DNA of 64,000 nt from assembly GCA_024280935.1 (NCBI GenBank), contig JAJRPE010000115.1, positions 12,256 to 76,255 of the forward strand. The letters run 5' to 3'. Below, piece after piece: positions 2,155 through 29,692 of the stretch. The position numbers and the translations under genes were made by a program. This DNA comes from Candidatus Hydrogenedentota bacterium (GTDB taxonomy: Bacteria; Hydrogenedentota; Hydrogenedentia; Hydrogenedentales; JAEUWI01). How positions within the stretch are numbered: the first letter of the stretch is position 1; each line of letters starts with the position of its first letter. A model generated the notes under the pieces. That model did no database searches and had not been told where the DNA came from. It saw only the letters and a list, made by a program, of their open reading frames with translations.

Positions 2155-2703
2155 TTATAGCTCCTTCAGCTCTACGGGAATTTCAGCATCGCCCCATTTG
2201 AACCAAACCCGTTTCGGTTCAATCTTGGTTAGGACGACACCGTCCGCATACTGATGTCCTTCTGATACAACTTCATCATCAACAATAGCAACCGGTGCAT
2301 ATTCACTGTATAGAATGCCCGTTACGTTCTTCTGAGCGACATCGTAGACCGTCGTTCCAATCGGCGCGCCGAGCAGACCCTCAGATGAAACTCGGATTCG
2401 GCCAACCAGCGGCGTCATGGGACTCCGACTGATTCTTTCCTCTTCATACCGAAAGGTGACCACCTCAATATTTCTAAGGAGCTTATCGAGATCCACATCC
2501 ACCTTCTTGAGGCGTGTCGGCCCCTTGGAGGGTGCGCTCGGAGCATGGGCCGTTGCGACCTTCTGGACTCCGCCTGAGCTACCACCGCCACCAGGCGGTG
2601 CGCCCGACCCCCCTGCGATGAAGATCTGATAGACGAGAACAAGGACCAGGACGGTGCCCAGAACCCCAGCGACTATGATTTCTTTTTTATTTTCCTGGTT
2701 CAT
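2155..2703 (-). CDS. pilP: PilP-like pilus assembly lipoprotein
   Basis: 182 aa with an N-terminal TM/lipoprotein-like segment, a Gly/Pro/Ser linker and a C-terminal beta domain. Its position between pilO and pilQ supports the call. It overlaps pilO by 17 bp. Confidence 0.5.
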   Translation of the reverse strand: MNQENKKEIIVAGVLGTVLVLVLVYQIFIAGGSGAPPGGGGSSGGVQKVATAHAPSAPSKGPTRLKKVDVDLDKLLRNIEVVTFRYEEERISRSPMTPLVGRIRVSSEGLLGAPIGTTVYDVAQKNVTGILYSEYAPVAIVDDEVVSEGHQYADGVVLTKIEPKRVWFKWGDAEIPVELKEL

Positions 2704-3277
2704 TGCTTGCTACGCTCGCAGTGGGTGCCTGAATGAATCGAAAAGTGCTGAGATGAAACTGCGCCTCGGAAATTCCGGCAATTTCCTCTCCAATATCCAA
2801 GTTTGAGACCTTTAAGTAGCGCTTGTCACGCTCCAAGAGATTGATAAACTGCACGATATCGTGAAAACCGCCCCGCGCTATAATCTCATAGGGGATAGTT
2901 TCCTTATTCGTGTCCGTCTTGGTGGGCAGCTGAATCAGTTCAACACCCAAGCCGAGGCTGTTGGCATCGGCCTCGAATTGCTCAAGCAGCTTGGGAATGT
3001 CCCGCTCTTCGGGCAAGCGCTCTTCGAAGAGTTCCACAAGACGCTGCGCCTTGACGGCCTCCTCCTTAAACTCTTTGAATTTTGCCTTGGTTTCCCGCGC
3101 CGCCTTCAACTCCTTAGTGGCCTCCTTGAGGTCGTTCTGAACAACGACAAGCCGCTCTTGCTGCTTTTTGGCGATCCCAAAATAGAAGCCTCCGCAAAGC
3201 AGCGCTGTAACCGCAAGAACCCCGGCCACGAACGCCCAGTCTTTGGGAGTGACCGTGCCTTTGAAGAAATCAAACAT
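2687..3277 (-). CDS. pilO: PilO-like type IV pilus inner-membrane assembly protein
   Basis: 196 aa with a single N-terminal TM helix followed by a long coiled coil, as in PilO. Gene order pilM-N-O-P-Q. Confidence 0.6.
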   Translation of the reverse strand: MFDFFKGTVTPKDWAFVAGVLAVTALLCGGFYFGIAKKQQERLVVVQNDLKEATKELKAARETKAKFKEFKEEAVKAQRLVELFEERLPEERDIPKLLEQFEADANSLGLGVELIQLPTKTDTNKETIPYEIIARGGFHDIVQFINLLERDKRYLKVSNLDIGEEIAGISEAQFHLSTFRFIQAPTASVASNEPGK

Positions 3278-3951
3278 CAGTTTCCGCCTCCCGCTTCAAT
3301 TTCGTACTCCAACACGAAACCGCGAACCGCGTAGCCGTTGTACTCCGCGTCAAGAATTTGCGGACGGTCCAAGGTAAATATGCTCGCAAACTCAGGATCC
3401 TCCGTTGTGTTGAAGGTAAGGGGGTTGATCTTGTTTGAACCCTCTTCGTTGTTGATGACGTAGCCCGATATCTCAAGCATGGGCCGCTTTACATTGACCG
3501 TCTTTACCTTCTCTTTCTTGGTCCGCTTGTCGATCTCGGGCTTGCCTGTTTTCTCATCAATGACCACATGTTCTTCTCGAACCGTCTTGTAAGTCACCCA
3601 TATACGCTTGTACCAGAAATTCTCGGGCGTAAGCGAGGCCAAACCGTGCAGCTGCTTTGACCAAATAATACGGTCACTCAGGATTTCCTGAATCACATTA
3701 ATCTTGTTTTCCAATTGCAGCTTTTTTTCGCTGAGCGCGTTGTACTCGTCGACGACATCCTTCAGCTCGTCCAAACCTTTTTTCGCCTGCACCAATTCTT
3801 GTGTCCTGTCGCTGATTTCCCCCAGCTTGCCGAAGAACATGAGGCCCATGCCCGCAACCGCGAACGCAAGAAGCATCAAACTCAAGAGATGGGGCAAAGG
3901 CGTCCGCTTAATGGGCCGCAGTTCCTCTGGGAGCAGATTTACAACAATCAT
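3277..3951 (-). CDS. pilN: PilN-like type IV pilus assembly protein
   Basis: Starts MIVVNLLPEELRP, the INLLP PilN signature. One TM helix and a coiled coil. It overlaps pilM by 4 bp (ATGA) and pilO by 1 bp. Confidence 0.7.
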   Translation of the reverse strand: MIVVNLLPEELRPIKRTPLPHLLSLMLLAFAVAGMGLMFFGKLGEISDRTQELVQAKKGLDELKDVVDEYNALSEKKLQLENKINVIQEILSDRIIWSKQLHGLASLTPENFWYKRIWVTYKTVREEHVVIDEKTGKPEIDKRTKKEKVKTVNVKRPMLEISGYVINNEEGSNKINPLTFNTTEDPEFASIFTLDRPQILDAEYNGYAVRGFVLEYEIEAGGGN

Positions 3952-5393
3952 AGGTCAGCCATCCCGCGTGCTGCGAGTCCGACGGCAACCATGAATTGCG
4001 CCGGCTGTTCGAGCATTCTGCCCATTGACATATCGTCGGCCACGAATAGCGCACTATTGGTTGGATCCGCCACGTCGACCGACTCAACCCCCAACTCATC
4101 AAGCAGGGTGGTACATACAAGGGAGGAATGGGCGATGCCTCCGCTTATCACCAGCCGATCCACAGGGCGCTCGTAAAGTTGGTGTTCATAATAATCGAAG
4201 GAACGACGAATTTCAGTAACCATCTTCGCAAGTGACACAAGGACCGTCTCCCTTATGTCCGGCTCAACTTCCTCCGCCATCCCCATTGGCGAAGCCGCTT
4301 GGAGACCGGAAAAGGAATCATCAAAGCCACCCCCGAGTTCATCGTCAAGAGGATCCAACAGGGAACTGCCTCCAGGCGCGCTGATAGGTGCTACCGGTGC
4401 CGCTTCTCCAAAAGGATCGTCACCAAAATCGGTAATAGAATCGGGTGTCTGTATACCTTCACCAGCATCGCTGAAGGTATCATCAAGATTCTCCACGATG
4501 GGAACCGCCGATGCCTCCACCTCTTCCATCTCTTCCATCAGGGCATTCGCACCGAGAGCCTCGGCACCAGCCTCCTCCTTGAACAAAAACTCTTGCAGAC
4601 GGCTTTCCGCCTCCTCGTACTCGCAACGAAGATCTTTCGCGATAGCGTGAATCAACTCACGGGAACCCCAGTTTACATCGCGAATGAAGTTTGATATACC
4701 ATCTTTCACAAAGTGTATGCTTGCCGAAGTCAAACCAATATTGACCAGGGCCACCGTTTCGCCGACACGCAAAAAGTCGCATGCCTCGGCAGCATCCGCC
4801 AAAGCAAGGGAGTCTATCCCGAGGATGGCATACTCAAGATCAGCCGCATCCATAATCTGAACGCGGGAATCGATAATCTCGTGTTTGGCCGCCACCAGCA
4901 GCACTTTCAACTGTCGCTGACCACCCTCTTCCACCTCATCAAGCAACGCCCAATCCAACGACACTTCAGCCAAGTCGTAGGGAATGTTCTGACCTGCCTC
5001 GCGACTCACAATTTCGCCGAGCTGATCACGGCTTGACTCGGCATAACGCGGGTAGCGAATTACTGCTGTCTGACCAGGCAAGGCCCCCACAATCTGGCTG
5101 GAATTCAGGTTCATATTGACCAACGCCTCGCTCACGGCAGCAGCGTGGGCGACAACCGGATCGGCGTTCACCTGATTTCGGTCCACCTCAGCATAGCCCA
5201 CCTCGTCAATACAGAGGCGACCACCCCGACGAGACATCTGAACCGCCTTGACAGCGTAGGTGCCGATATCGAGGCCTATCGATTTCTTTGCCTTAAAGAA
5301 CAGCAATAAACCCAAGCTCCTCTGTGAACCGCGCAAGACGATGCCAGGTCGGGCCACAATGCTCCAAGGCAAACGCTCTTCGCGAAACGCCAA
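3948..5393 (-). CDS. pilM: PilM-like actin-fold ATPase with a roughly 100-aa acidic low-complexity insertion. The annotated start is probably over-extended; the real start is likely nearer KKSIGLDIGTYAVKAV
   Basis: IGLDIGTYAVKAVQMS is the PilM/FtsA phosphate-1 motif. An acidic run (EEAGAEALGANALMEEMEEVEA...DPLDDELGGGFDDSF) is inserted in mid-protein. It is the first gene of the pil operon. Confidence 0.75.
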   Translation of the reverse strand: MAFREERLPWSIVARPGIVLRGSQRSLGLLLFFKAKKSIGLDIGTYAVKAVQMSRRGGRLCIDEVGYAEVDRNQVNADPVVAHAAAVSEALVNMNLNSSQIVGALPGQTAVIRYPRYAESSRDQLGEIVSREAGQNIPYDLAEVSLDWALLDEVEEGGQRQLKVLLVAAKHEIIDSRVQIMDAADLEYAILGIDSLALADAAEACDFLRVGETVALVNIGLTSASIHFVKDGISNFIRDVNWGSRELIHAIAKDLRCEYEEAESRLQEFLFKEEAGAEALGANALMEEMEEVEASAVPIVENLDDTFSDAGEGIQTPDSITDFGDDPFGEAAPVAPISAPGGSSLLDPLDDELGGGFDDSFSGLQAASPMGMAEEVEPDIRETVLVSLAKMVTEIRRSFDYYEHQLYERPVDRLVISGGIAHSSLVCTTLLDELGVESVDVADPTNSALFVADDMSMGRMLEQPAQFMVAVGLAARGMADL

Positions 5394-6180
5394 CGACGGG
5401 CCGAACCCTTGTTTTGCGCAGTATTACCACAACACCTGTTCCGAACGTTGCGACCACGCCATTTTGTGGTCATCACCAATTATTCACCAAACTTGGTCTG
5501 GTATTGACCAAGTCGGCCAGCGGCACGGGCTGTACCAAGCCATCTGCGTCATCTACTGTAGTAATCAGTTGACTAACGCGATCACCAGGACCAGCCTGCA
5601 TATTTAGTTTACGCACTCCTCGCTAGTTTGTCAAGTATTTACTTTATAAAAAAAATGGGCCGCCATCTCTGGCGACCCATCCACCATCTATATATTCAAT
5701 TCCCCGCTCATGCCGTCCGACAATGAGCGCATAATACCTTTCCCTCAAAAGGGGGGCGTCTTCACGGCAGCCTTTCGCCTTCCACTCAAAAACTGGAGGC
5801 TTGGCGTTGGCTACTCAAATATCAAACACCCAGTACATGCGAAAGGTGCGGCGCACAGTTGCCATAACGCACACAGCAGGGAAAAATGGTGTCAAATCTT
5901 GGTTTTTCAGCAAACACTGGAAATGATTGTCACGCTTCACGCCGTCTTGCTACACGTGGCGCAACGGGATCATTATAGCACGTGATCGCCCCGAAGCGGC
6001 AAGAGGGGTCGCTCTTTCTGGGATTGAAATGGGGAAAGCGGAATTAAATTTGCTCGTCGAGGTGTTTCCTACAACGTTGAGCGGTCTCTGTCGCACGCTC
6101 CACGGTTGGATTGGTGCGAGCAGCTCGACTACAATGAGGCACGAGTGCAAAAGCACCGTCATCCAGGAGTTTGATTCCCC

Positions 6181-6933
6181 GTGAATATCTCATCTAATCC
6201 AGCACCGGACGCATCCGATCCACTGGAGTATTTCGTGCTGCCTCGGACCGTCCGGCGCCAAGTTTTGGCCTGTTCCGCTCTATCCGACAAAAAATCGGCT
6301 GGTGACGTATTTTACCTGTGGATACAACTGGATCCCGATGGTGAATCCCCTGCTATCGCGCCCGACAACTGGCTGAACGTGATCGACGAGGCTGCCGCCA
6401 TTGGCGCAAACTGGCTGGTCATCACACTGGGCGATCAGGAAAGGCCGCCTGAACACGTGGATGCCATGTGTCATTGGGCGCAGGACACGCATAAGATGAC
6501 GGTGTGTCTGCATAGTCTGGAATCAAAACTCCACCCAATGGTCGAATCGCTGGTTGTGTCCTTGGCCCAGGAGCTTACCTATCTGCTCGTGGAACCGAAA
6601 CATACGCACGCATTTGAGTCACTACGCGAACGCGGCGTGCGCGTCGGTCTGGCCAATCCAGCCCCCCACGACAGCGACACGGCGTGTGAATTCCCCTACA
6701 AGATGGTGTTCGTCGATGCTGGCGGCAACCTGTACACCTGTGGATTGGTTGCAGGCGAACAGGAGTTCTTTCTTGGTTCCGTATTCAACGGCAGCCTCGA
6801 ACAAATCACGCACAACCCCCAACTCCCCCATTCCGTTGCCGCATCAAAAGAGCGCACCGAGGACGGGTGCAGCGGATGTCCACCTTTGGTAGCAAAATAC
6901 CTCTGTAAGGAACAGCACGGGGTCACTGATTAA
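6181..6933 (+). CDS. Radical-SAM/SPASM-like protein lacking the CxxxCxxC cluster motif (a degenerate maturase-like protein)
   Basis: GTG start at 6181 with an in-frame TGA at 6172, so no upstream extension is possible. LNVIDEAAAIGANWLVITLGDQERP resembles the rSAM TIM-barrel segment before GGEPLL. The C-terminal CEFPYKMVFVDAGGNLYTCGLVAGEQEFFLGSVFNGSLEQI...CSGCPPLVAKYLC resembles a SPASM/twitch domain. Only one Cys is present where CxxxCxxC should be. Confidence 0.4.
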   Translation: MNISSNPAPDASDPLEYFVLPRTVRRQVLACSALSDKKSAGDVFYLWIQLDPDGESPAIAPDNWLNVIDEAAAIGANWLVITLGDQERPPEHVDAMCHWAQDTHKMTVCLHSLESKLHPMVESLVVSLAQELTYLLVEPKHTHAFESLRERGVRVGLANPAPHDSDTACEFPYKMVFVDAGGNLYTCGLVAGEQEFFLGSVFNGSLEQITHNPQLPHSVAASKERTEDGCSGCPPLVAKYLCKEQHGVTD

Positions 6934-7162
6934 GCCCAACCTCGCGAAGCACCTCGTCCAGGGATTCATCCGACAGGGCACCATCGGCCAGCTCGACGAC
7001 GGCCGCCCGATAGTCTTCCTCGGTAAAATAGAAGCCACATTCGGCCCCCAGCTTAACCACATGGGCCAGCCCCCCCTTCCCTTGAAAACCGTTGACCGCT
7101 TCCTGCAATGCCGGGCTTTCACCGATTCGGCTTATAAATGCTGTGGCGTTGGATTGCGACAT
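6923..7162 (-). CDS. Nif11-domain small protein (Nif11/NHLP leader-like, 79 aa)
   Basis: AFISRIGESPALQEAV...AHVVKLGAECGFYFTEEDY matches the Nif11 domain pattern. The tail ALSDESLDEV resembles the LSDEELExV motif of Nif11-class leaders, but there is no GG and only 8 residues follow. The start ATG overlaps the stop of the upstream regulator (TGATG). Confidence 0.55.
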   Translation of the reverse strand: MSQSNATAFISRIGESPALQEAVNGFQGKGGLAHVVKLGAECGFYFTEEDYRAAVVELADGALSDESLDEVLREVGLNQ

Positions 7163-8655
7163 CAGTCCTTCTCCGAAGCGTCTGCCAGGGATGCGCGTGC
7201 GCCGTTAACGACGCGCATCGCGGTATTCGCATCCAGTTTCAGCGCTGCCAACGAACTTTTCTGGTCTGCAAACAGGGCCTTCCTGGCGTCGTCTCCCGTG
7301 TAAGACAGGGCAAGCGAAAGGTTCAAGAGGCGCGCCAGGGCTTCGGCCTCCTCTGCCTCCTCAGGCTCAATATAGTGTCGAAGCGCTTTGGACAGGGGCT
7401 TTGGAAAGCGCCACCTCTCCGCAATAACACCTGCCGCAACCGCATGGTCCATACTGAAAAGTTTCTGCTCCGCAGCCAATAGTTCGGCACCGTAGAGATG
7501 GGATTTCACACGCTTATATTTGGTCGGGGATATACTCAACAGCGCAAGGCGCCCCAGCTCTCCAAGCATGCCGAGACTACAGGCTGCATGCTCACCCACG
7601 ACCCCGCCCTCGCGGGCCAAGCCTTGGGCAACTGTGGCCGTAAGACGACTCCGCTGAAACAACGCCCCAAGCGGCTCCAGGACCTTGGGAGAAACGGGCT
7701 CAACAAGCTCTCCGAGCACCCCCAACACGCCTGCCTTTCCAAGGAGCACAACCGCCATGGGGATGCTCTCGATTTGACCTGGCACACCATAGATATCACT
7801 GTTGGCCACGCGCATGAGAAAGGCACCTAAGCTCGGCTCTTCGAGAACCAGGCGCGCAACCCCACTCAACGAGGACTCCGAAGCCACGGCCTCCCTCAAC
7901 ACGTTCAGGCGCTCCTTGCCCAAAAATACCCCGTCCCACGCCGCGACCTTCTCATTCACCCGCTCTTTGGAATCTTTGGTGGTGTCCAGCATGTTGTCAA
8001 AGCTGGACAATGTCAACTCAAATTGGCTTCGATCAGGATAGTACCTCTGCACCGCAGCATGGATATCTTCCAATTTACAGAGCATCGCCTTGACGCGGAG
8101 ACCGGTCGTCCGCTCCAGCAACGTAATGGTGGCGGTGTCCAGCGGACAAGCCATGGCCACCGTGAGCAACTTACCCAGGCGATCAATCGGCAGGACCAGA
8201 CTCTCCACAGCCAACTTCTTGGGCACAAGCTCGATCAGATCCGGCGCGATTTCGAAACGAGCCAAATCGATGGTCGCGATACCCGGCTGGCGCGACAGCA
8301 CATCGTGGAGTTTGTCTTTATCCAGATGCCCCAGGGCGATGAGCAGTTCAAAGGTCTTCCCCCCTTGGGTCCTCTGCTTGTTGAGCGCGTCCTGAAGTTG
8401 GACCTCCGTTATTATCCCGGCATCAATCAGCAATTGGCCGATAGGGGCGTGGGCGGGCGGCGTGTCGCTCTGCTCGGAAAAACCGGGCTGTCCTTCGGGC
8501 GGCTCTGACGGTAGTGGAACGGCGTTTTCTTCGCTGCTTTTAATGTGGGCGGCACATCGAACACACTTGAAGGTTCTCCCGGTGGCATCCACCGGGATCT
8601 TCATCTTTTGACCGCACGTACACGTAAGAACGAGCATTGATGGACTCTCAGACAT
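7162..8655 (-). CDS. Regulatory protein: MJ0042-type zinc ribbon + GspE/MshE N-terminal (MshEN-like) domain + HDOD domain
   Basis: ATG at 8655 is preceded by AGGAGG 7 nt upstream. The longer track ORF starting at 8781 is probably over-extended. Zinc ribbon: LTCTCGQKMKIP...KCVRC. T2SE_Nter-like: LIDAGIITEVQLQDALNKQ...LIALGHL...LVPKKLAVESLVLPIDRLGKLLTVAMACPLD. HDOD-like: LGKAGVLGVLGEL...HAACSLGMLGELGRLALL. Confidence 0.6.
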   Translation of the reverse strand: MSESPSMLVLTCTCGQKMKIPVDATGRTFKCVRCAAHIKSSEENAVPLPSEPPEGQPGFSEQSDTPPAHAPIGQLLIDAGIITEVQLQDALNKQRTQGGKTFELLIALGHLDKDKLHDVLSRQPGIATIDLARFEIAPDLIELVPKKLAVESLVLPIDRLGKLLTVAMACPLDTATITLLERTTGLRVKAMLCKLEDIHAAVQRYYPDRSQFELTLSSFDNMLDTTKDSKERVNEKVAAWDGVFLGKERLNVLREAVASESSLSGVARLVLEEPSLGAFLMRVANSDIYGVPGQIESIPMAVVLLGKAGVLGVLGELVEPVSPKVLEPLGALFQRSRLTATVAQGLAREGGVVGEHAACSLGMLGELGRLALLSISPTKYKRVKSHLYGAELLAAEQKLFSMDHAVAAGVIAERWRFPKPLSKALRHYIEPEEAEEAEALARLLNLSLALSYTGDDARKALFADQKSSLAALKLDANTAMRVVNGARASLADASEKD

Positions 8656-8939
8656 CAAACACCTCCTGGACCCCGTCGTAAAACCTGGCGTGCGATCCTG
8701 GCGGACCGGTCCGCCCATATTCCAGATCGAGTATTGCCGAACTGCTGCCACAAGAGTGTGAATAGCACACATGGTTGACAACAGTTTCCGCTCAGTATGT
8801 TACACTAGATGGCACGCAAAGCGAAACCAAGCACCTGCGCATCTGCGTTCACACAAGGCACGACAAACAAAATCTTCCATGGCACGAAGCAGTCGGATCC
8901 ACAGACACCGGCTGTGCCCCTGCCACCTTGGAGTCCGGT

Positions 8940-11900
8940 ATGCAATTCACCATCCTCGAAGAGAAACTCACCGCGTCAAACGAGCATTTTCGGGAGCGCA
9001 AGCACGACAAATCGCTCGATTTGCTTTCCGATACTTGTTCCATATTCTCTGAGAGTCCCGTGCTCTGCTACTTCCAGGCGCGTAATTTCGCTGCTCTAAA
9101 TCGTGTGGACGATGCTCAGGGACTGTGTGAGAATGCCCTCCGTTCAGTCGAAGCTCTTCGGGAGCGCGCCGATGAATTGGGCGCGCTGCTCGACCCGATA
9201 CAGCGGAAGCGACTGCTGGGTGCCTCCACAGTACAGCAAGAGGCCCTCGATTCACTGAAGTCCACCTTGGACAACCGCCTGGCAGATGCCTTAAACAAGT
9301 CGGAACTCCAAAAAACGGTGGCGGCGCTCCAGGCAGAACTGGGTCAACTAAAGTCTGAAGCCGGCAGCGTGTCTGAATCGGAACTCGCCCTGCGGGAAGA
9401 GGTGGAGGCGCTCCGTTCTGCGGAAGAGCGGAAAACCGCCGCGCTTCTTCAATCTCAGGATGCTATGGAAAACCTCAAGCTCTTACTTGAGGAGCGGGAA
9501 TCGGCGGTGCGCCAGGTTGTCGAGGACTCCGAGGAAAAAGAGAATCGCATGGTGGCCCTTCAGGGCCAGTTGGAAGCACTGAATCAAGAGGCCCAGGCCG
9601 CGACTGCCTCCGAAGAGGAATTACTGGCGGAAGTCGAACGGCTGCGAAGCGAAGAAACCGCGAAGGCGCAGGCCCTGAAGGATGCGCGAGGCACCATGAC
9701 TTTGCTGCAAGACAAGCTGGCCGAACGTGAGGCCGCTGTAGCCCAGGCGGAGAAAAACACGGCGGACCGCGAAGCGGCAATCGGGCAATTGCAGCACGAC
9801 ATGAAGAGCATCCAGCAAAACGCGGCGGCAAGCTCCGAATCCGAAAAAGCGCTCCAAGCCGAACTGGGCCAACTGCGCGCAAACGAGAAAAACAAGTCGG
9901 ATGCCCTCGCTATTGCCCGGGAAGAGTTGCTTTCCCTCCAGGGCAATCTGAAGGATCGGGAATCGGCCGTGGCAGCCGCTGAATCTCGAACCAAAGAAAG
10001 CGAAGCGGCCATGGCGGCGCTCCAACAGGAAATGGAGACAATTCAATCCCAGGCCGCCGAAGCTTCTTCCTCCGAACAGGCGCTCCAAACTGAACTCGAA
10101 CAACTGCGTGTCAATGAGCGGAAGAAAACGGAAGCCTTGGAAACTGCACGGGGCGAACTCTCGCAACTACGAGACACCTTGGACGAGCGGGAGGGCGCCG
10201 TTGCCGAGGCCGAGGCCCGGAGCCGGGACAGCGAAGCCGCCATCGCAGCACTGAACCAGGAACTGTCCAACATCCAGGAGCAAGCCACGCAGGCATCCTC
10301 TTCGGAAGAAGCCCTGCAACAGGAACTAGCCCAACTACGAAACAACGAAAAGGAAAAATCCGAGGCACTCGCAACGGCACGAGGCGCGCTTTCCCAATTG
10401 CAAGAGACCCTGGACGACCGAGAGAGCGCCATTGCCGAGGCCGAAGCCCGCAGTAAGGAAAAAGAGGACGCAATCGCGGCGCTCCACGGCGAATTGAAGC
10501 AGATTCAGCAGCAGGCGGAGACGGCTTCCAGCTCCGAGCAGGCCCTCGCGCAGGAATTGGAACAACTGCGCAAAAATGAGCTGGAAAAATCCGATTCGCT
10601 GAAAAAGACACGGGGCGACCTCGAAAAACTTCAAGAAGAACTCGCAAAGCGCGAGGCCACCATTCAGGAGGCGACGGCCAAGAGCAGCATGAGCGATGAT
10701 GCGCTCAACACGCTCCGGGAAGAACTGGTGGGCCTCCATGGGCAAGTTCAGGAGCGGGCCGAATCGGAACGTGTCCTGACGGAGGAAGTATCCCAACTAC
10801 GTACGGACAGTTCCTCAAAGTCCGAGTCCCTGGATGGTGCCAGAGGCGAACTCGAAAACCTTCGCAAACAGCTGGACCAGCGCGAGAGCGCCGTCGATGA
10901 AGCACGTCAGAGCAGCGCGGAACAAGAAGCCCAAGTGGCCACGATGCAAGAGGAACTGGCAAAGCTGCGGGCCCAGGCTCAATCAGCATCGAATTCAGAG
11001 TCGAAAATCGCAAACGAATTGGAAGCCCTCCGCAACAGCGAAGCGCAGAAATCACAGACCCTGGATGATGCCCGCGCTGAACTGGAATCATTAAAAGGGC
11101 AATTGGGCGCTCGGGAAGATGCCGTGGAGCAGGCCCGAAAAACCAGCAGCGAACAGGAAATACTCCTGGCAACCATGCAGGAAGAGCTGACCGGCCTTCG
11201 GGAGCACGCGAACAAGGCATCCTCGTCCGAAGCCAGCTTGGCAGCGGAGCTCGATTCCTTGCGCTCCAGCGAATCTGACAAATCAAAGTCGCTGGATGAG
11301 GCCCGTGCAGAACTGGAAGCGCTGCGGGGGGATCTCACCGCACGCGAAGAGGCCACCAAGGATGCCAAGGCCGCGAATGCGGAGCAGGAAGCGCTCATGC
11401 TGGCCATGCAGAAGGAATTGGAAGGACTCCGCGACGAAGCGGCCAGCGTCACTTCCTCGGAAGAGGCCCTGGCCCGGGAAGTGGAAGAACTCCGCGCAAA
11501 TGAATCCAAAAAATCGCAAGCGGTGGAAACCGCAAAAGTCGAGATGGAGGCGCTTCGCAAGGCGCTCGCAGATAGGGAGCAGGAAATTCAGCGGGCGGCG
11601 GAGAGTGATGATGCCAGTGAAGCGCAGATGGAGCAGCTCAACGAAGAACTGAAAGCGCTTCAGGCCAAAGCGCAGGAAGCCGCCTCTTCCGAACAGGAGC
11701 TGGAAAACGAGCTTTCCCAGCTTCGGGACAACGAGCAGGAGAAGAATGCGGCGCTGCAAGAGTCCCGTGCCGCGCTCGAAGAACTGCAACAAACGCTCGC
11801 CAGCCACGAAGAAGCCACGCAGCAAACTATCGAGGAAAAGGAAAGGAACGAAAAGGCCGTCAAACTGCTTCAGGAAGAGCTATCCCAACTCGAAGGGCAG

Positions 11901-13223
11901 AAAGCGGCGGCCAACGCCTCCCAAGCTTCACTGTCGAGTGAATTGGAGCTCCTGAAGCAAGAGGAAAAACAACAGCTTTCCAACCTCGAAAAAGCGCGGA
12001 CCGATGTGGAAGCCCTGCGTCAAACCGTGGACAAGCAAGACGATGTTCTTGCCCGCACCGAATTCATGCTCAACCGGGCGCGCAAGGGTGGCCCCTCAGG
12101 AAGCCTCCTCCCCGCATTCGTCGTATTCGGAGTCTTTCTGCTGGGCCTGGTCGGTGTAATGGCCTATAAAGCCCTGACCCCGGAACCGGACCCGGTCGAA
12201 ACTGCGCCCCAAGTCGTCTCTCTGGAGTTTCCAGCGGATCGATCTATCGGGACCCTGCTTGTTACGCCTCTGAAAAAACTTGCTCGCGACGATTGGCAAC
12301 CTTTTGCGGAAAAAGCACAGGGCACCTTTGAGGTATCGACAGACCAGGCCCTTCGCTTAGAACTTAACGAGGAGGCTGCCAGCGATCTATCTGCGCTCAG
12401 CGACTTGGACCCGCAATTCATTCGCTCGCTGGTCTTGCCCGCGCTGCCCCAGGACATCGCCAGTCTTGAACGCCTCAGCCACCTGACAGCGTTGGCCACG
12501 CTGACAACCAAGTTTCCCATCACCGAGAAAGAACGGGCCGCATTGGCCGAGCGCCTGCCTGCCTCCTGCGCCATCGTGGATCCTGGCAAGGCCGCCCCAA
12601 CCATATCCCTCGCCGAGCTGAACACGCCACCGACCGCACGCACGTTGGAATTCCCGGCCAACACATCACTTGGGAAGCTATTCGTGCGCCCGTGGCAGAC
12701 AGAAGATGAGGGGCCGTGGCAGGAACGCGGTGCCGCACAGGGTTCCATTTCTGTGGCCGAGGGGGTGGAGGCAAAACTCGAAGTCGCCTACGATTTAGGG
12801 GGTACCCTGAGCGCTCTATCTACCTTGGACAAGAATGACCTCCAGGCGATTGGACTCGTGGGGGAAAAGGTAAACAACGACAGCATGGAGCACGTGGGAC
12901 TGCTGACAGGCCTCCGGCACGTCACCCTGACGAGAACAGGCGTGACCGACGAAGGACTCCGCCACCTCTGGGAATTGTCCTTTCTCCATGATCTAAACAT
13001 TCACACGCCGAAAGAAATGACGGACACAGGTTTGGCGTATCTGACCGCTCACCGCTATCTCTCCCGCCTGTCGCTCACCAATACCAACTTAACTTTCGAG
13101 AGCGTCAATACACTGGGAACCTTTTCCTATCTTCGGGAACTTCATCTAAGCGATTCGGGCATCTCCGAGGAAGGCATCATTTCGCTCGAAGGCGACCTGC
13201 CCAACTGTAAGATAAGCTACTGA
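8940..13223 (+). CDS. Giant coiled-coil repeat protein: about 12 tandem 77-aa (11-heptad) repeats, one TM helix, and a C-terminal leucine-rich-repeat domain
   Basis: ATG at 8940 has a GGAG RBS. The track start at 8775 adds a non-coiled 55-aa extension that I discount. The repeat unit is SSSEQALQxELxQLRxNExxKSxALxxARGxLSQLxxTLDxRExAxAEAEARSxxxExAIAALxxELxxIQxQAxxA, 77 aa and 231 bp at the DNA level, spanning roughly 9330-12060. TM helix LLPAFVVFGVFLLGLVGVMAY. The LRR-like C-terminus is LxxLxxLxL repeats from about 12300 to 13220. Confidence 0.7.
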   Translation: MQFTILEEKLTASNEHFRERKHDKSLDLLSDTCSIFSESPVLCYFQARNFAALNRVDDAQGLCENALRSVEALRERADELGALLDPIQRKRLLGASTVQQEALDSLKSTLDNRLADALNKSELQKTVAALQAELGQLKSEAGSVSESELALREEVEALRSAEERKTAALLQSQDAMENLKLLLEERESAVRQVVEDSEEKENRMVALQGQLEALNQEAQAATASEEELLAEVERLRSEETAKAQALKDARGTMTLLQDKLAEREAAVAQAEKNTADREAAIGQLQHDMKSIQQNAAASSESEKALQAELGQLRANEKNKSDALAIAREELLSLQGNLKDRESAVAAAESRTKESEAAMAALQQEMETIQSQAAEASSSEQALQTELEQLRVNERKKTEALETARGELSQLRDTLDEREGAVAEAEARSRDSEAAIAALNQELSNIQEQATQASSSEEALQQELAQLRNNEKEKSEALATARGALSQLQETLDDRESAIAEAEARSKEKEDAIAALHGELKQIQQQAETASSSEQALAQELEQLRKNELEKSDSLKKTRGDLEKLQEELAKREATIQEATAKSSMSDDALNTLREELVGLHGQVQERAESERVLTEEVSQLRTDSSSKSESLDGARGELENLRKQLDQRESAVDEARQSSAEQEAQVATMQEELAKLRAQAQSASNSESKIANELEALRNSEAQKSQTLDDARAELESLKGQLGAREDAVEQARKTSSEQEILLATMQEELTGLREHANKASSSEASLAAELDSLRSSESDKSKSLDEARAELEALRGDLTAREEATKDAKAANAEQEALMLAMQKELEGLRDEAASVTSSEEALAREVEELRANESKKSQAVETAKVEMEALRKALADREQEIQRAAESDDASEAQMEQLNEELKALQAKAQEAASSEQELENELSQLRDNEQEKNAALQESRAALEELQQTLASHEEATQQTIEEKERNEKAVKLLQEELSQLEGQKAAANASQASLSSELELLKQEEKQQLSNLEKARTDVEALRQTVDKQDDVLARTEFMLNRARKGGPSGSLLPAFVVFGVFLLGLVGVMAYKALTPEPDPVETAPQVVSLEFPADRSIGTLLVTPLKKLARDDWQPFAEKAQGTFEVSTDQALRLELNEEAASDLSALSDLDPQFIRSLVLPALPQDIASLERLSHLTALATLTTKFPITEKERAALAERLPASCAIVDPGKAAPTISLAELNTPPTARTLEFPANTSLGKLFVRPWQTEDEGPWQERGAAQGSISVAEGVEAKLEVAYDLGGTLSALSTLDKNDLQAIGLVGEKVNNDSMEHVGLLTGLRHVTLTRTGVTDEGLRHLWELSFLHDLNIHTPKEMTDTGLAYLTAHRYLSRLSLTNTNLTFESVNTLGTFSYLRELHLSDSGISEEGIISLEGDLPNCKISY
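9330..12060 (+). repeat. Intragenic 231-bp tandem DNA repeat array, about 12 units, encoding the 77-aa coiled-coil repeat
   Basis: Direct reading shows near-periodic recurrence of gc(c/g)tcc(t/a)cttc(g/c)gaaga...gaactgg...caactgcg every 231 bp. The antisense ORFs in this span are artefacts. Confidence 0.8.
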
Positions 13224-18870: not shown

Positions 18871-19211
18871 AAAAAAAACCTGCTGGTAGAGACCAACAGG
18901 GCGAACGCATCGGAAACGTGATGCACGGTAAGCGTACACGGGTTGCGCACGCACGGAGACCACCGGCCAACGCACACACACCTCCTGCAATACGTTTTCA
19001 CGTACTCGGACGTATCCCAGCCTTCTCCCATCCGGACTTTAACCGTCGGCCCCGGAATTACACCGGTGTCTGCGCCGAAGCGCTCGCGGGCTTTCACCGC
19101 CGGTCAGGAATTGCACCATGCCCTGAAGGTCAGGTATGTTTCAGTTCTGGTTGTATTCTACCAAGCGGTAGGTTGTTCGGTCAATAAATTGGGCTTTGGG
19201 TTGTTGAAAAG

Positions 19212-29160: not shown

Positions 29161-29692
29161 GGTGAAGCTCCCGAGTTTGAAGGTCGTTCCTTATCCATTC
29201 ACAGGCCGCAACTTTCAGGGTCACTGGAACACTGCCATCAGAATAGCGATACGTTTTCATCGGACCGCTGCGTTGCAAAATGCACGTGTTTATGGTTGTA
29301 TATAAAAGATGTGAGATAATGCAAACGAGTACGATATGAGAAAAAAGGTTCTTCCGGTTCAAGGGTACGGTGTAGTTCAGAGCGACTTTCTTTGACTGTG
29401 TTTTTTCCTCGTCGTTGAGCGCCGAAGGTGCGTTTTATATCAGCCTGGGGCAACGCCCCAGGTCTCAAATCAGACAGAATTCAGGGCTGAAGGCCCGGCC
29501 CATAATCCAGCGGAAAATGGGCCTCTTGATTGGTATGAAACGGGCTTTCAGCCCTGTGGAATAGCTACATCCAGAAACCTGGGGCGTTGCCCCAGGCTGG
29601 TATGAACCCGGACCTTCGGCCCTGTAAAGCAACAAATACAAATAACATTGAACCGGATGAACCAAAAAAAAGCCGTCGGGTGCCACGGCCAA

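Follow-up and report, generated by a model that had tools for sequence, protein, structure and literature searches.

Nif11-type RiPP leaders (N11P, TIGR03798), which include the MppE leader (9ZN4) and those of the prochlorosin precursors, combine a helical nucleus with a downstream acidic segment that bears an L(X)4L motif. The consensus leader motif is ELSDEELEAVAGG (PMC2887384), and L(X)4L is a known enzyme-docking hotspot of Nif11 and NHLP leaders (PMC12715784). TIGR03798-type precursors have a cleavage site (Gly-Gly or GA) and a core of about 20 or more residues, some of them modifiable and typically about 23 aa in all, and genuine Nif11-specific radical SAM (rSAM)/SPASM maturase families are known (TIGR04064 and TIGR04103). 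Other rSAM enzymes with a SPASM or twitch domain are PqqE, SuiB, CteB, and BtrN. Two families, TIGR04347 (Halobacteria) and TIGR04193 (grasp-with-spasm), are named in NCBIfam as pseudo-SAM/SPASM proteins; these are rSAM/SPASM-derived and, judging by their names, presumably have no working radical SAM site. Among signalling proteins, MshEN c-di-GMP receptor domains form the N-termini of MshE and PilB, and there is precedent for HDOD as a non-enzymatic adaptor in SadB (PMC12075610).

The locus described here, from a Candidatus Hydrogenedentota bacterium, resembles each of these systems in part. It lies within a 64,000-nucleotide stretch of DNA, referred to below as the window. It is neither an active nor a decayed RiPP gene cluster; we read it as a neighbourhood of signalling genes that the phylum Hydrogenedentota has conserved.

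The regulator and the Nif11 protein

On the minus strand, an open reading frame spanning 7162–8781 encodes, from its real ATG at 8655, a regulator of 497 aa (7162..8655) with Pfam and NCBIfam matches. Its HDOD domain (PF08668) occupies residues 252–428 (E 6.2e-27), its MshEN domain (PF05157) scores 59.7 bits (E 2.8e-16), and the c-di-GMP motif model NF053729 scores 48.1 bits against a cut-off of 38. The protein carries the 24-residue MshEN motif as PIGQLLIDAGIITEVQLQDALNKQ plus a second copy, in agreement with the pattern RLGxxLLxxGxLxxxxLxxxLxxQ; in the first copy Pro replaces the consensus Arg, in the window and in 41 of 80 motif-bearing homologues. The Zn ribbon is assigned from a four-Cys pattern, CxC...CxxC, that is kept in 68 of 96 homologues and is sub-threshold in Pfam (E 0.15). 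While the MshEN domains of MshE and PilB sit on a secretion ATPase, the one in the window is fused to HDOD and the Zn ribbon. An identical protein is publicly named 'HDOD domain-containing protein [Candidatus Hydrogenedentes bacterium]'. Searches of a full-text library turned up nothing specific on MshEN-HDOD fusions, on HDOD and type IV pili, on pili of Hydrogenedentes, or on pseudo-rSAM proteins.

The TGA of the regulator gene (7164–7162) and the ATG of the next gene (7162–7160) share one base on the minus strand, as TGATG. The regulator gene is translationally coupled to this second gene (6923..7162, minus strand), which encodes a Nif11 protein of 79 aa, and the two form one operon. The spacing between them is -1 nt in the window, and all but one of 17 loci (16) fall between -8 and +68 nt. 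The 79-aa protein matches Nif11 (PF07862) over residues 1–50 (E 5e-9; 36.7 bits against a gathering score of 23.8) and TIGR03798 over residues 1–71 (36.2 bits against a cut-off of 32.3), and the profile of its subfamily aligns over its full length with the MppE leader 9ZN4 (E 9.3e-10). A helical nucleus (residues 1–58) precedes a conserved docking motif, G61-x-L63-x4-L68, in which G61 and L63 never vary across the subfamily alignment and L68 reaches at least 90% conservation. The AF2 prediction has five helices; compared with PDB structures, this model gave nothing significant, the best being again 9ZN4 (E 4.1, TM 0.30).

The difference from described leaders lies at the C-terminus. The window counterpart of the consensus leader motif is ALSDESLDEVLRE, in which Gly-Gly is replaced by R-E, and just five residues follow, so that the protein has neither the cleavage site nor the core peptide of a TIGR03798-type precursor. 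Gly-Gly is missing from 17 of 18 subfamily sequences, and the exception (L043) has just QGL after it. In the 18 species-level sequences, the tails past this position run to about 4–18 residues, differ in length and sequence, and lack Cys. Also unlike described leader genes, the window gene occurs once, lacks a neighbouring maturase, peptidase, or transporter gene, and is co-transcribed with a signalling protein; the subfamily HMM found no further Nif11 copies within the fetched loci. By its sequence, the protein is a complete leader homologue that keeps the nucleus and L(X)4L, in a subfamily without cleavage site or core. A Nif11 domain fused into the regulator where the separate gene is absent was considered and rejected: in L002 and L004, the 521-aa regulator has a C-terminus like that of the window protein, with no Nif11 domain. 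In a public source, a protein near-identical to the 79-aa one is named 'natural product precursor'.

A radical-SAM fold without its catalytic motif

Convergent with this operon is the gene for a 250-aa pseudo-rSAM, twitch-like protein (6181..6933, plus strand, GTG start), whose 3' end overlaps that of the Nif11 gene by 11 nt (6923–6933); across loci, these convergent ends are mostly 3–30 nt apart (-11 nt in the window). An in-frame TGA at 6172–6174 rules out an N-terminal extension. A frameshifted or upstream rSAM N-terminus was sought by reading 5600–6200 in three frames; nothing rSAM-like appeared, and a 6S RNA gene fills the gap. The protein has a partial (beta/alpha)6 TIM-barrel fold. Residues 169–234 match Pfam SPASM (PF13186; E 5.8e-5, 23.7 bits against a cut-off of 21.5), while the SPASM model TIGR04085 gives 22.6 bits against a cut-off of 27 and PF04055 gives no match at E ≤ 1. 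The protein differs in several features from rSAM enzymes such as PqqE, SuiB, CteB, and BtrN. There is no CX3CX2C, the GGE SAM-binding position after beta-2 reads LGDQ and is not conserved in the family, and there is no RRE, because the part before beta-1 amounts to just about 43 residues with a single helix. Towards the C-terminus lies the motif C169-x12-G182-x4-C187 ... C230-x2-C233, and these four are the only invariant cysteines of the family (C240 is lineage-specific). In place of the seven-Cys SPASM motif, CX9-15GX4C...CX2CX5CX3C...C, the protein has a four-ligand, twitch-like pattern, which aligns with the auxiliary-cluster region of BtrN and CteB; the AF2 model of this region is of low confidence (pLDDT 31–56).

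The family comprises about 100 clusters, is sharply bounded (members of about 225–276 aa), and is apparently confined to Hydrogenedentota. CX3CX2C is missing from 135 of its 136 members, the exception being P0225, which has CGEGCACC in the loop expected to carry the rSAM motif. C31 and C97 are 72–80% conserved, and the N-terminal part has no further conserved Cys. No full-length homologue retaining CX3CX2C came out of an exhaustive profile search; canonical rSAM proteins align over the SPASM part only, at E ≥ 1e-10. Descent from a Nif11-specific maturase was likewise rejected. The nearest canonical matches are generic (NirJ2, mycofactocin, StsB-like) and TIGR04064 ranks low, so that there is no signal for such an origin. 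The 250-aa protein thus has a radical-SAM fold, and its family lacks the motif for the SAM-cleaving cluster and keeps a four-Cys twitch-like site. Some homologues of the 250-aa protein are publicly labelled "radical SAM protein".

A sequence-only reading of the window had described much of this: the regulator's three parts, the TGATG overlap, the Nif11 domain with no Gly-Gly and few residues after its leader motif, the rSAM-like barrel with a SPASM-like C-terminus and no CX3CX2C, and the stop that bars an extension. All of these stand after the profile searches, the Zn ribbon by its cysteine pattern. Its thought that CX3CX2C might survive in homologues elsewhere came to nothing beyond P0225. 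It had also held that the arrangement was undescribed. A pseudo-maturase, though, has some precedent: the concept of an rSAM/SPASM-derived protein of this kind is shared with TIGR04347 and TIGR04193. The 250-aa protein itself matches neither of those two families at E ≤ 1, is shorter (they have 340–390 aa), and is apparently confined to one phylum.

Conservation and gene order across Hydrogenedentota

Both small genes are under purifying selection, with dN/dS mostly 0.07–0.14 (for Nif11, 0.07–0.13 plus one pair at 0.33), and the open reading frames are intact in 51 species. Gene order was counted in 41 species loci with enough sequence. The pseudo-rSAM gene is convergent with the MshEN-HDOD gene in 25 of these, with Nif11 between them in 15 of the 25, and the sequence-only reading's question of whether the genes co-occur in related genomes is answered by this three-gene module in 15 of 41. 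In the other 16 species, the pseudo-rSAM gene lies elsewhere in the genome, away from the regulator. Nif11 is absent from these 16 pseudo-rSAM-only loci and from three HDOD-only loci; it was found in 15 of 27 loci in which both neighbours are adjacent and in 0 of 19 otherwise (Fisher p = 5e-5, a value that ignores phylogeny). Metagenome loci found through Nif11 first had both neighbours adjacent in six of six cases. Ten species, plus L002, L004, L066, and L067, have pseudo-rSAM and HDOD genes together with no Nif11. The tree indicates at least 4–5 independent separations of the pseudo-rSAM and HDOD genes, and in none was Nif11 left behind. The invariant residues of the pseudo-rSAM are identical in loci with Nif11 and HDOD, with HDOD only, and with neither; residues conserved only alongside Nif11 (F18, H104, F177) are few and weak, a signal that phylogeny confounds and that is given no weight here.

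Divergent from the regulator gene is a gene for a giant coiled-coil membrane protein of up to 1482 aa (8775..13223, plus strand; the true start is probably a later ATG). It has coiled-coil repeats of about 65 aa, one TM helix, and an LRR-like C-terminus, with all Pfam matches sub-threshold (ATG16 coiled coil, LRR_6). Of the 25 HDOD-adjacent species loci, 21 have the giant gene next to that for MshEN-HDOD, and among the remaining four, several contigs stop before it could be seen; it is also found in L001–L006, L066–L068, and L070. On the other side, the context includes the type IV pilus alignment genes pilO, pilN-like, and pilM (2687..5393, minus strand; PilM_2 5.5e-40, PilO 1.9e-13), joined in homologous loci by a secretin. 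Between pilM and the pseudo-rSAM gene, outside the module, is a 6S RNA gene (5697..5885, minus strand; Rfam RF00013, 50.2 bits where the gathering score is 46.4). A terminator scan placed a terminator-like hairpin just after it (5682–5653, minus strand). The block of convergent pseudo-rSAM and Nif11-HDOD genes with the divergent giant gene recurs with three upstream flanks, namely pilM/6S, flagellar genes, and carA, so that in some lineages the module lies away from pilus genes; the pseudo-rSAM-HDOD-giant part is retained across these flanks at 30–37% protein identity. In split loci L026, L031, and L038, the pseudo-rSAM gene remains with pilM. The annotated flanks (pilMNOPQ, an ABC-F protein, a hydrolase, PHP, nusB, and rib genes) contain no peptidase, transporter, or tailoring gene of RiPP machinery, and the combination that defines a RiPP biosynthetic gene cluster, an active maturase with an RRE plus a nearby peptidase or exporter, is absent from the locus.

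A proposed signalling operon and a pseudo-enzyme: competing explanations

The explanation that we prefer, at a probability of about one half, is a regulatory operon of the c-di-GMP/HDOD type whose accessory protein is a leader-only Nif11, adjoining an autonomous, catalytically dead rSAM/twitch protein. The regulator is predicted to bind c-di-GMP via its MshEN domain and would signal by protein-protein contact via a non-catalytic HDOD domain, as an output or adaptor domain of the kind seen in SadB (PMC12075610). Its likely targets would be the giant coiled-coil protein and, as gene adjacency suggests, the type IV pilus machinery encoded nearby. The Nif11 protein would be made in step with the regulator and may be a small, dispensable adaptor whose L(X)4L helix docks on a partner, like a leader on its maturase. 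The pseudo-rSAM would be incapable of radical chemistry, would most likely hold one [4Fe-4S] cluster (or Zn) at its twitch-like site, and may serve as a binding or redox-sensing protein. We infer that its core function is independent of the Nif11 and HDOD genes; synteny suggests a possible link to the regulator operon.

The restriction of Nif11 to loci with both neighbours fits another explanation at least as well as the preferred one. An ancestral Nif11 precursor that lost its core and its rSAM/SPASM maturase that lost the catalytic cluster may have kept their leader-enzyme binding, as a complex that modulates the MshEN-HDOD regulator, perhaps in a redox- or Fe-S-dependent manner. The Nif11-free outcome of every separation, the retained docking motif, the extremely tight convergent 3' ends, and the existence of genuine Nif11-specific maturases speak for such an exapted pair, which nevertheless we consider doubtful. 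The pseudo-rSAM has no RRE-sized N-terminal domain, its invariant residues are the same in lineages without Nif11, it occurs with HDOD or by itself in many loci that have no Nif11, the canonical proteins closest to it are SPASM enzymes of generic rather than Nif11 type, which align over the SPASM part alone, and the genes are convergent rather than co-transcribed. The fuller scenario, in which leader and maturase were domesticated together and L(X)4L docking survives as a protein-protein switch, possibly Fe-S- or redox-sensitive, within a c-di-GMP/HDOD pathway controlling pili, is equally tentative. Recruitment into a c-di-GMP/pilus module, as the sequence-only reading had offered, is plausible and finds support in part. 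Nif11 is clearly in the regulator's operon; the pseudo-rSAM gene is monocistronic and separately transcribed, adjacent to the regulator in 25 of 41 loci, and context-independent in its conserved residues. Those same observations suit the view that the pseudo-rSAM is functionally unrelated to the operon and that an ancestral order of pilM/6S, pseudo-rSAM, and HDOD operon is simply decaying. Consistent with this, the separated gene sometimes stays by pilM, and two assemblies that are 99.5% identical diverge exactly at the pseudo-rSAM stop codon. Retention of the block with three different flanks at such low protein identity, and the constant lack of Nif11 where the pair is split, count against synteny as the whole account, which is possible at rather long odds.

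Two further explanations keep the locus within RiPP biology. That precursor and maturase are relics being lost, the other proposal of the sequence-only reading, draws on the lack of Gly-Gly, core, and CX3CX2C in the window. It is refuted, with very little doubt, because both genes are conserved phylum-wide at dN/dS of about 0.1 and the missing motifs are missing family-wide; the frames are intact, residues are invariant across the family, and identity levels of 30% exclude very recent common ancestry as the source of this conservation. Very improbable, too, is a cryptic active pathway in which enzymes from other loci modify the Nif11 tail, or the tail is extended as on a scaffold peptide, or in which the pseudo-rSAM uses a non-canonical cluster. 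The above-cut-off TIGR03798 match, the public precursor name, the CGEGCACC of P0225, and the partial conservation of C31 and C97 favour it, against short, variable, Cys-free tails, no peptidase, transporter, or tailoring genes nearby, no third conserved N-terminal Cys, and no conserved GGE motif.

Should the exapted leader-maturase binding module prove true, it would be a bridge between RiPP enzymology and signalling, and with a domesticated pair, signal transduction would for the first time be seen to reuse RiPP biosynthetic recognition. The analysis delimits a family of catalytically dead rSAM/twitch proteins, so far uncharacterised and with sharp bounds, and a leader-only Nif11 subfamily under purifying selection, both of them a tractable test of roles for the Nif11 fold outside leader function. 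With the MshEN-HDOD fusion, a candidate phylum that lacks cultured genetics gains a candidate c-di-GMP effector. The public annotation of the 79-aa and 250-aa proteins is also corrected: neither can function as its label of "natural product precursor" or "radical SAM protein" says, and with these labels genome-mining tools would therefore tally a false RiPP cluster phylum-wide.

Gene order and selection

The window carries three genes where the sequence-only reading had placed them: the pseudo-rSAM gene (6181-6933, plus strand, GTG start), encoding a 250-aa protein of radical-SAM fold without CX3CX2C; a gene for a 79-aa Nif11 protein (6923-7162, minus strand); and an MshEN-HDOD regulator gene (7162-8655, minus strand), whose 497-aa product is identical in length to a deposited 'HDOD domain-containing protein'. 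As that reading held, the regulator TGA and the Nif11 ATG share one base (TGATG). The Nif11 and pseudo-rSAM genes are convergent, with an 11-nt overlap. An N-terminal extension of the 250-aa protein had been ruled out, correctly: the start at 6181 has a TGA in its own frame at 6172-6174, and nothing rSAM-like is encoded upstream in the other frames either. The ~790-bp gap between the type IV pilus gene pilM and the pseudo-rSAM gene contains a 6S RNA gene (5697-5885, minus strand; RF00013, 50.2 bits; gathering score 46.4) with a strong terminator-like hairpin at its 3' side (5682-5653, minus strand); comparable gaps of 650-780 bp occur at homologous loci L004 and L006.

Both small genes are under purifying selection, with pairwise dN/dS of 0.08-0.14 for pseudo-rSAM and 0.07-0.13 for Nif11 (one pair 0.33), and their ORFs are intact across lineages sharing only 30-40% identity. 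The proposal of a decayed RiPP cassette is therefore refuted.

The pseudo-rSAM and Nif11 proteins

The SPASM-like C-terminus ascribed to the 250-aa protein was recovered by profile search (PF13186, 23.7 bits; cut-off 21.5), while a search with PF04055 gave no match. An AF2 model based on 35 homologues showed a confident barrel at residues 45-160 and a poorly modelled Cys-rich C-terminus. When 1.84 billion representatives were searched exhaustively by profile, about 100 family clusters came out at E ≤ 1e-10, with full-length members of ~225-276 aa; beyond this there was a sharp drop to canonical rSAM/SPASM enzymes, aligning over the SPASM part only. The lack of CX3CX2C extends to 135 of 136 family members and, judged from sequence, the catalytic apparatus is missing family-wide, beyond the window copy. 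The single homologue with the string, P0225, has it as CLCGEGCACC (residues ~47-57) in the loop after beta-1, the place of the rSAM cluster motif; the string could be a remnant or have been regained.

The model has just ~43 residues and a single helix ahead of beta-1, too few for an RRE leader-recognition domain, so the protein lacks one. Across 64-109 sequences, W47, W64, L65, D69, E70, G75, W99, C169, G182, C187, C230, C233 and P234 are (near-)invariant. With its four invariant cysteines the protein departs from the seven-Cys SPASM motif; they would fit one twitch-type auxiliary cluster or zinc site. The protein matches neither TIGR04347 nor TIGR04193, the pseudo-SAM/SPASM families already named in NCBIfam. 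Its invariant residues are identical with or without adjoining Nif11 and HDOD genes; therefore its core function appears autonomous. The JGI label on some homologues, 'radical SAM protein with 4Fe4S-binding SPASM domain', overstates what their sequences allow. The protein would be an Fe-S or Zn binder without radical chemistry, possibly a redox-sensitive partner.

The Nif11 domain of the 79-aa protein was supported by PF07862 (E 5e-9) and TIGR03798 (36.2 bits against a cut-off of 32.3). Orthologues from 18 different species align end to end, and the subfamily profile covers the whole of 9ZN4, the solved Nif11 leader structure of lanthipeptide precursor MppE (E 9.3e-10). The canonical N11P motif is ELSDEELEAVAGG (PMC2887384); the window protein reads ALSDESLDEVLRE, so Gly-Gly is replaced by R-E, in agreement with the earlier observation that a GG cleavage site is absent. 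Loss of the cleavage motif is likewise family-wide. The tail after this position has about 4-18 variable, Cys-free residues (5 in the window), whereas N11P precursors typically have a core of ~23. From its full-length leader homology, the R-E replacement and the short tail, the protein thus appears to be a complete leader without anything to lead. The label 'Nif11-like leader peptide family natural product precursor' on a near-identical 79-aa protein (99% identity) likewise claims too much. Conserved subfamily residues include G61, L63 and L68, the latter two forming L(X)4L, a docking hotspot of Nif11/NHLP leaders on modifying enzymes (PMC12715784). AF2 returned a nucleus of four helices, with a C-terminal helix at low confidence. 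Seven tandem Nif11-leader ORFs on a metagenome contig (L064:193-5203) look like a paralogous array of precursors unrelated to the core-less subfamily.

The regulator and its neighbors

Profiles for MshEN, the NF053729 c-di-GMP motif and HDOD all match the regulator, upholding its predicted MshEN and HDOD domains. Both MshEN motifs are present; the first residue is P for consensus R, a substitution shared with 41 of the 80 homologues that bear the motifs. These motifs would bind c-di-GMP, and the non-catalytic HDOD domain would work via protein contact, like the HDOD adaptor SadB (PMC12075610). Divergent from the regulator lies a giant gene (8775-13223, plus strand) encoding a coiled-coil membrane protein of at most 1482 aa. 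Its repeats are ~65 aa long, it has a single TM helix, and its C-terminus resembles an LRR below threshold; a Pfam search gave no family above threshold. The gene was detected beside the regulator in 21 of 25 HDOD-adjacent species loci, and HDOD may relay the signal to the giant protein and to the adjacent pilMNOPQ machinery. Searches from the regulator side also turned up two MshEN-HDOD paralogues, at L065:4262-7329 and L069:3260-6326. They lie in other signalling neighborhoods, divergent beside PAS/response-regulator genes and a gene for an MshEN + cNMP-binding protein, and the phylum may thus have a second signalling node of c-di-GMP/cNMP type.

Co-occurrence and a possible three-way link

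Scanning one genome per species yielded 51 pseudo-rSAM loci, nearly all labelled Hydrogenedentota; the few labelled Nitrospirales have the same gene context. Three-gene synteny held in part: among the 41 loci that extend 2 kb or more downstream, 15 have pseudo-rSAM convergent with Nif11 and then MshEN-HDOD, 10 have pseudo-rSAM convergent with MshEN-HDOD and no space for Nif11, and 16 have neither neighbor. Six metagenome loci were recovered by starting from Nif11; each has convergent pseudo-rSAM, and each has HDOD upstream wherever the contig permits. From the regulator side, L066 and L067 have a truncated regulator and pseudo-rSAM without Nif11, and L068, L070 and L071 have a regulator without either. 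The shortened regulators (L066:6001-6972, L067:6001-7845) are only 323-335 aa, with HDOD lost or split, and L067 has an extra, uncharacterized 255-aa ORF between its regulator and pseudo-rSAM. In a rough NJ tree, pseudo-rSAM and regulator seem to have separated independently at least 4-5 times, and Nif11 to have been lost independently several times. In 16 of 17 loci HDOD and Nif11 are spaced by -8 to +68 nt, as expected of an operon, and the convergent 3' ends mostly lie 3-30 nt apart.

Three observations favor a functional module of all three proteins. The block is mobile, its order constant while the upstream flank varies between pilM/6S (window clade), flagellar genes (L001) and carA (Ca. 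Hydrogenedens clade), and Nif11 is absent whenever the pseudo-rSAM/regulator pair is split (Nif11 present in 15 of 27 loci with both neighbors adjacent vs 0 of 19 with only one; Fisher test, p = 5e-5, kinship of loci ignored). The retained docking motif also favors a three-way link. The leader-only Nif11 protein would be an accessory adaptor docking via L(X)4L. However, pseudo-rSAM is transcribed separately and convergently, sits elsewhere in 16 species, lacks an RRE, and keeps its invariant residues regardless of Nif11/HDOD neighbors. The suggested recruitment into a c-di-GMP/pilus regulatory module is a plausible reading of the Nif11-regulator pair; for pseudo-rSAM it is unproven. The families are new and their kinds known (pseudo-rSAM/SPASM protein, Nif11-domain protein, MshEN effector); as supposed from the sequence, no description of the arrangement was found in the searchable literature. 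The arrangement would gain substantially in interest if leader-maturase docking had been reused for signalling.

Two assemblies, L001:2998-10773 and L012:1-7776, are 99.5% identical over 7.8 kb, ending exactly at the pseudo-rSAM stop codon, and then unrelated: L001 continues into Nif11 and HDOD, L012 into an epimerase-like ORF (by eye, from its N-terminus). Either the strains differ by a rearrangement here, or the convergent junction has been mis-assembled. Elsewhere, the window carries an FMN riboswitch (19016-19134, minus strand, 102.6 bits) beside ribBA, ribH and nusB, and an Acido-Lenti-1 sRNA match (29418-29462, minus strand, 40.5 bits).
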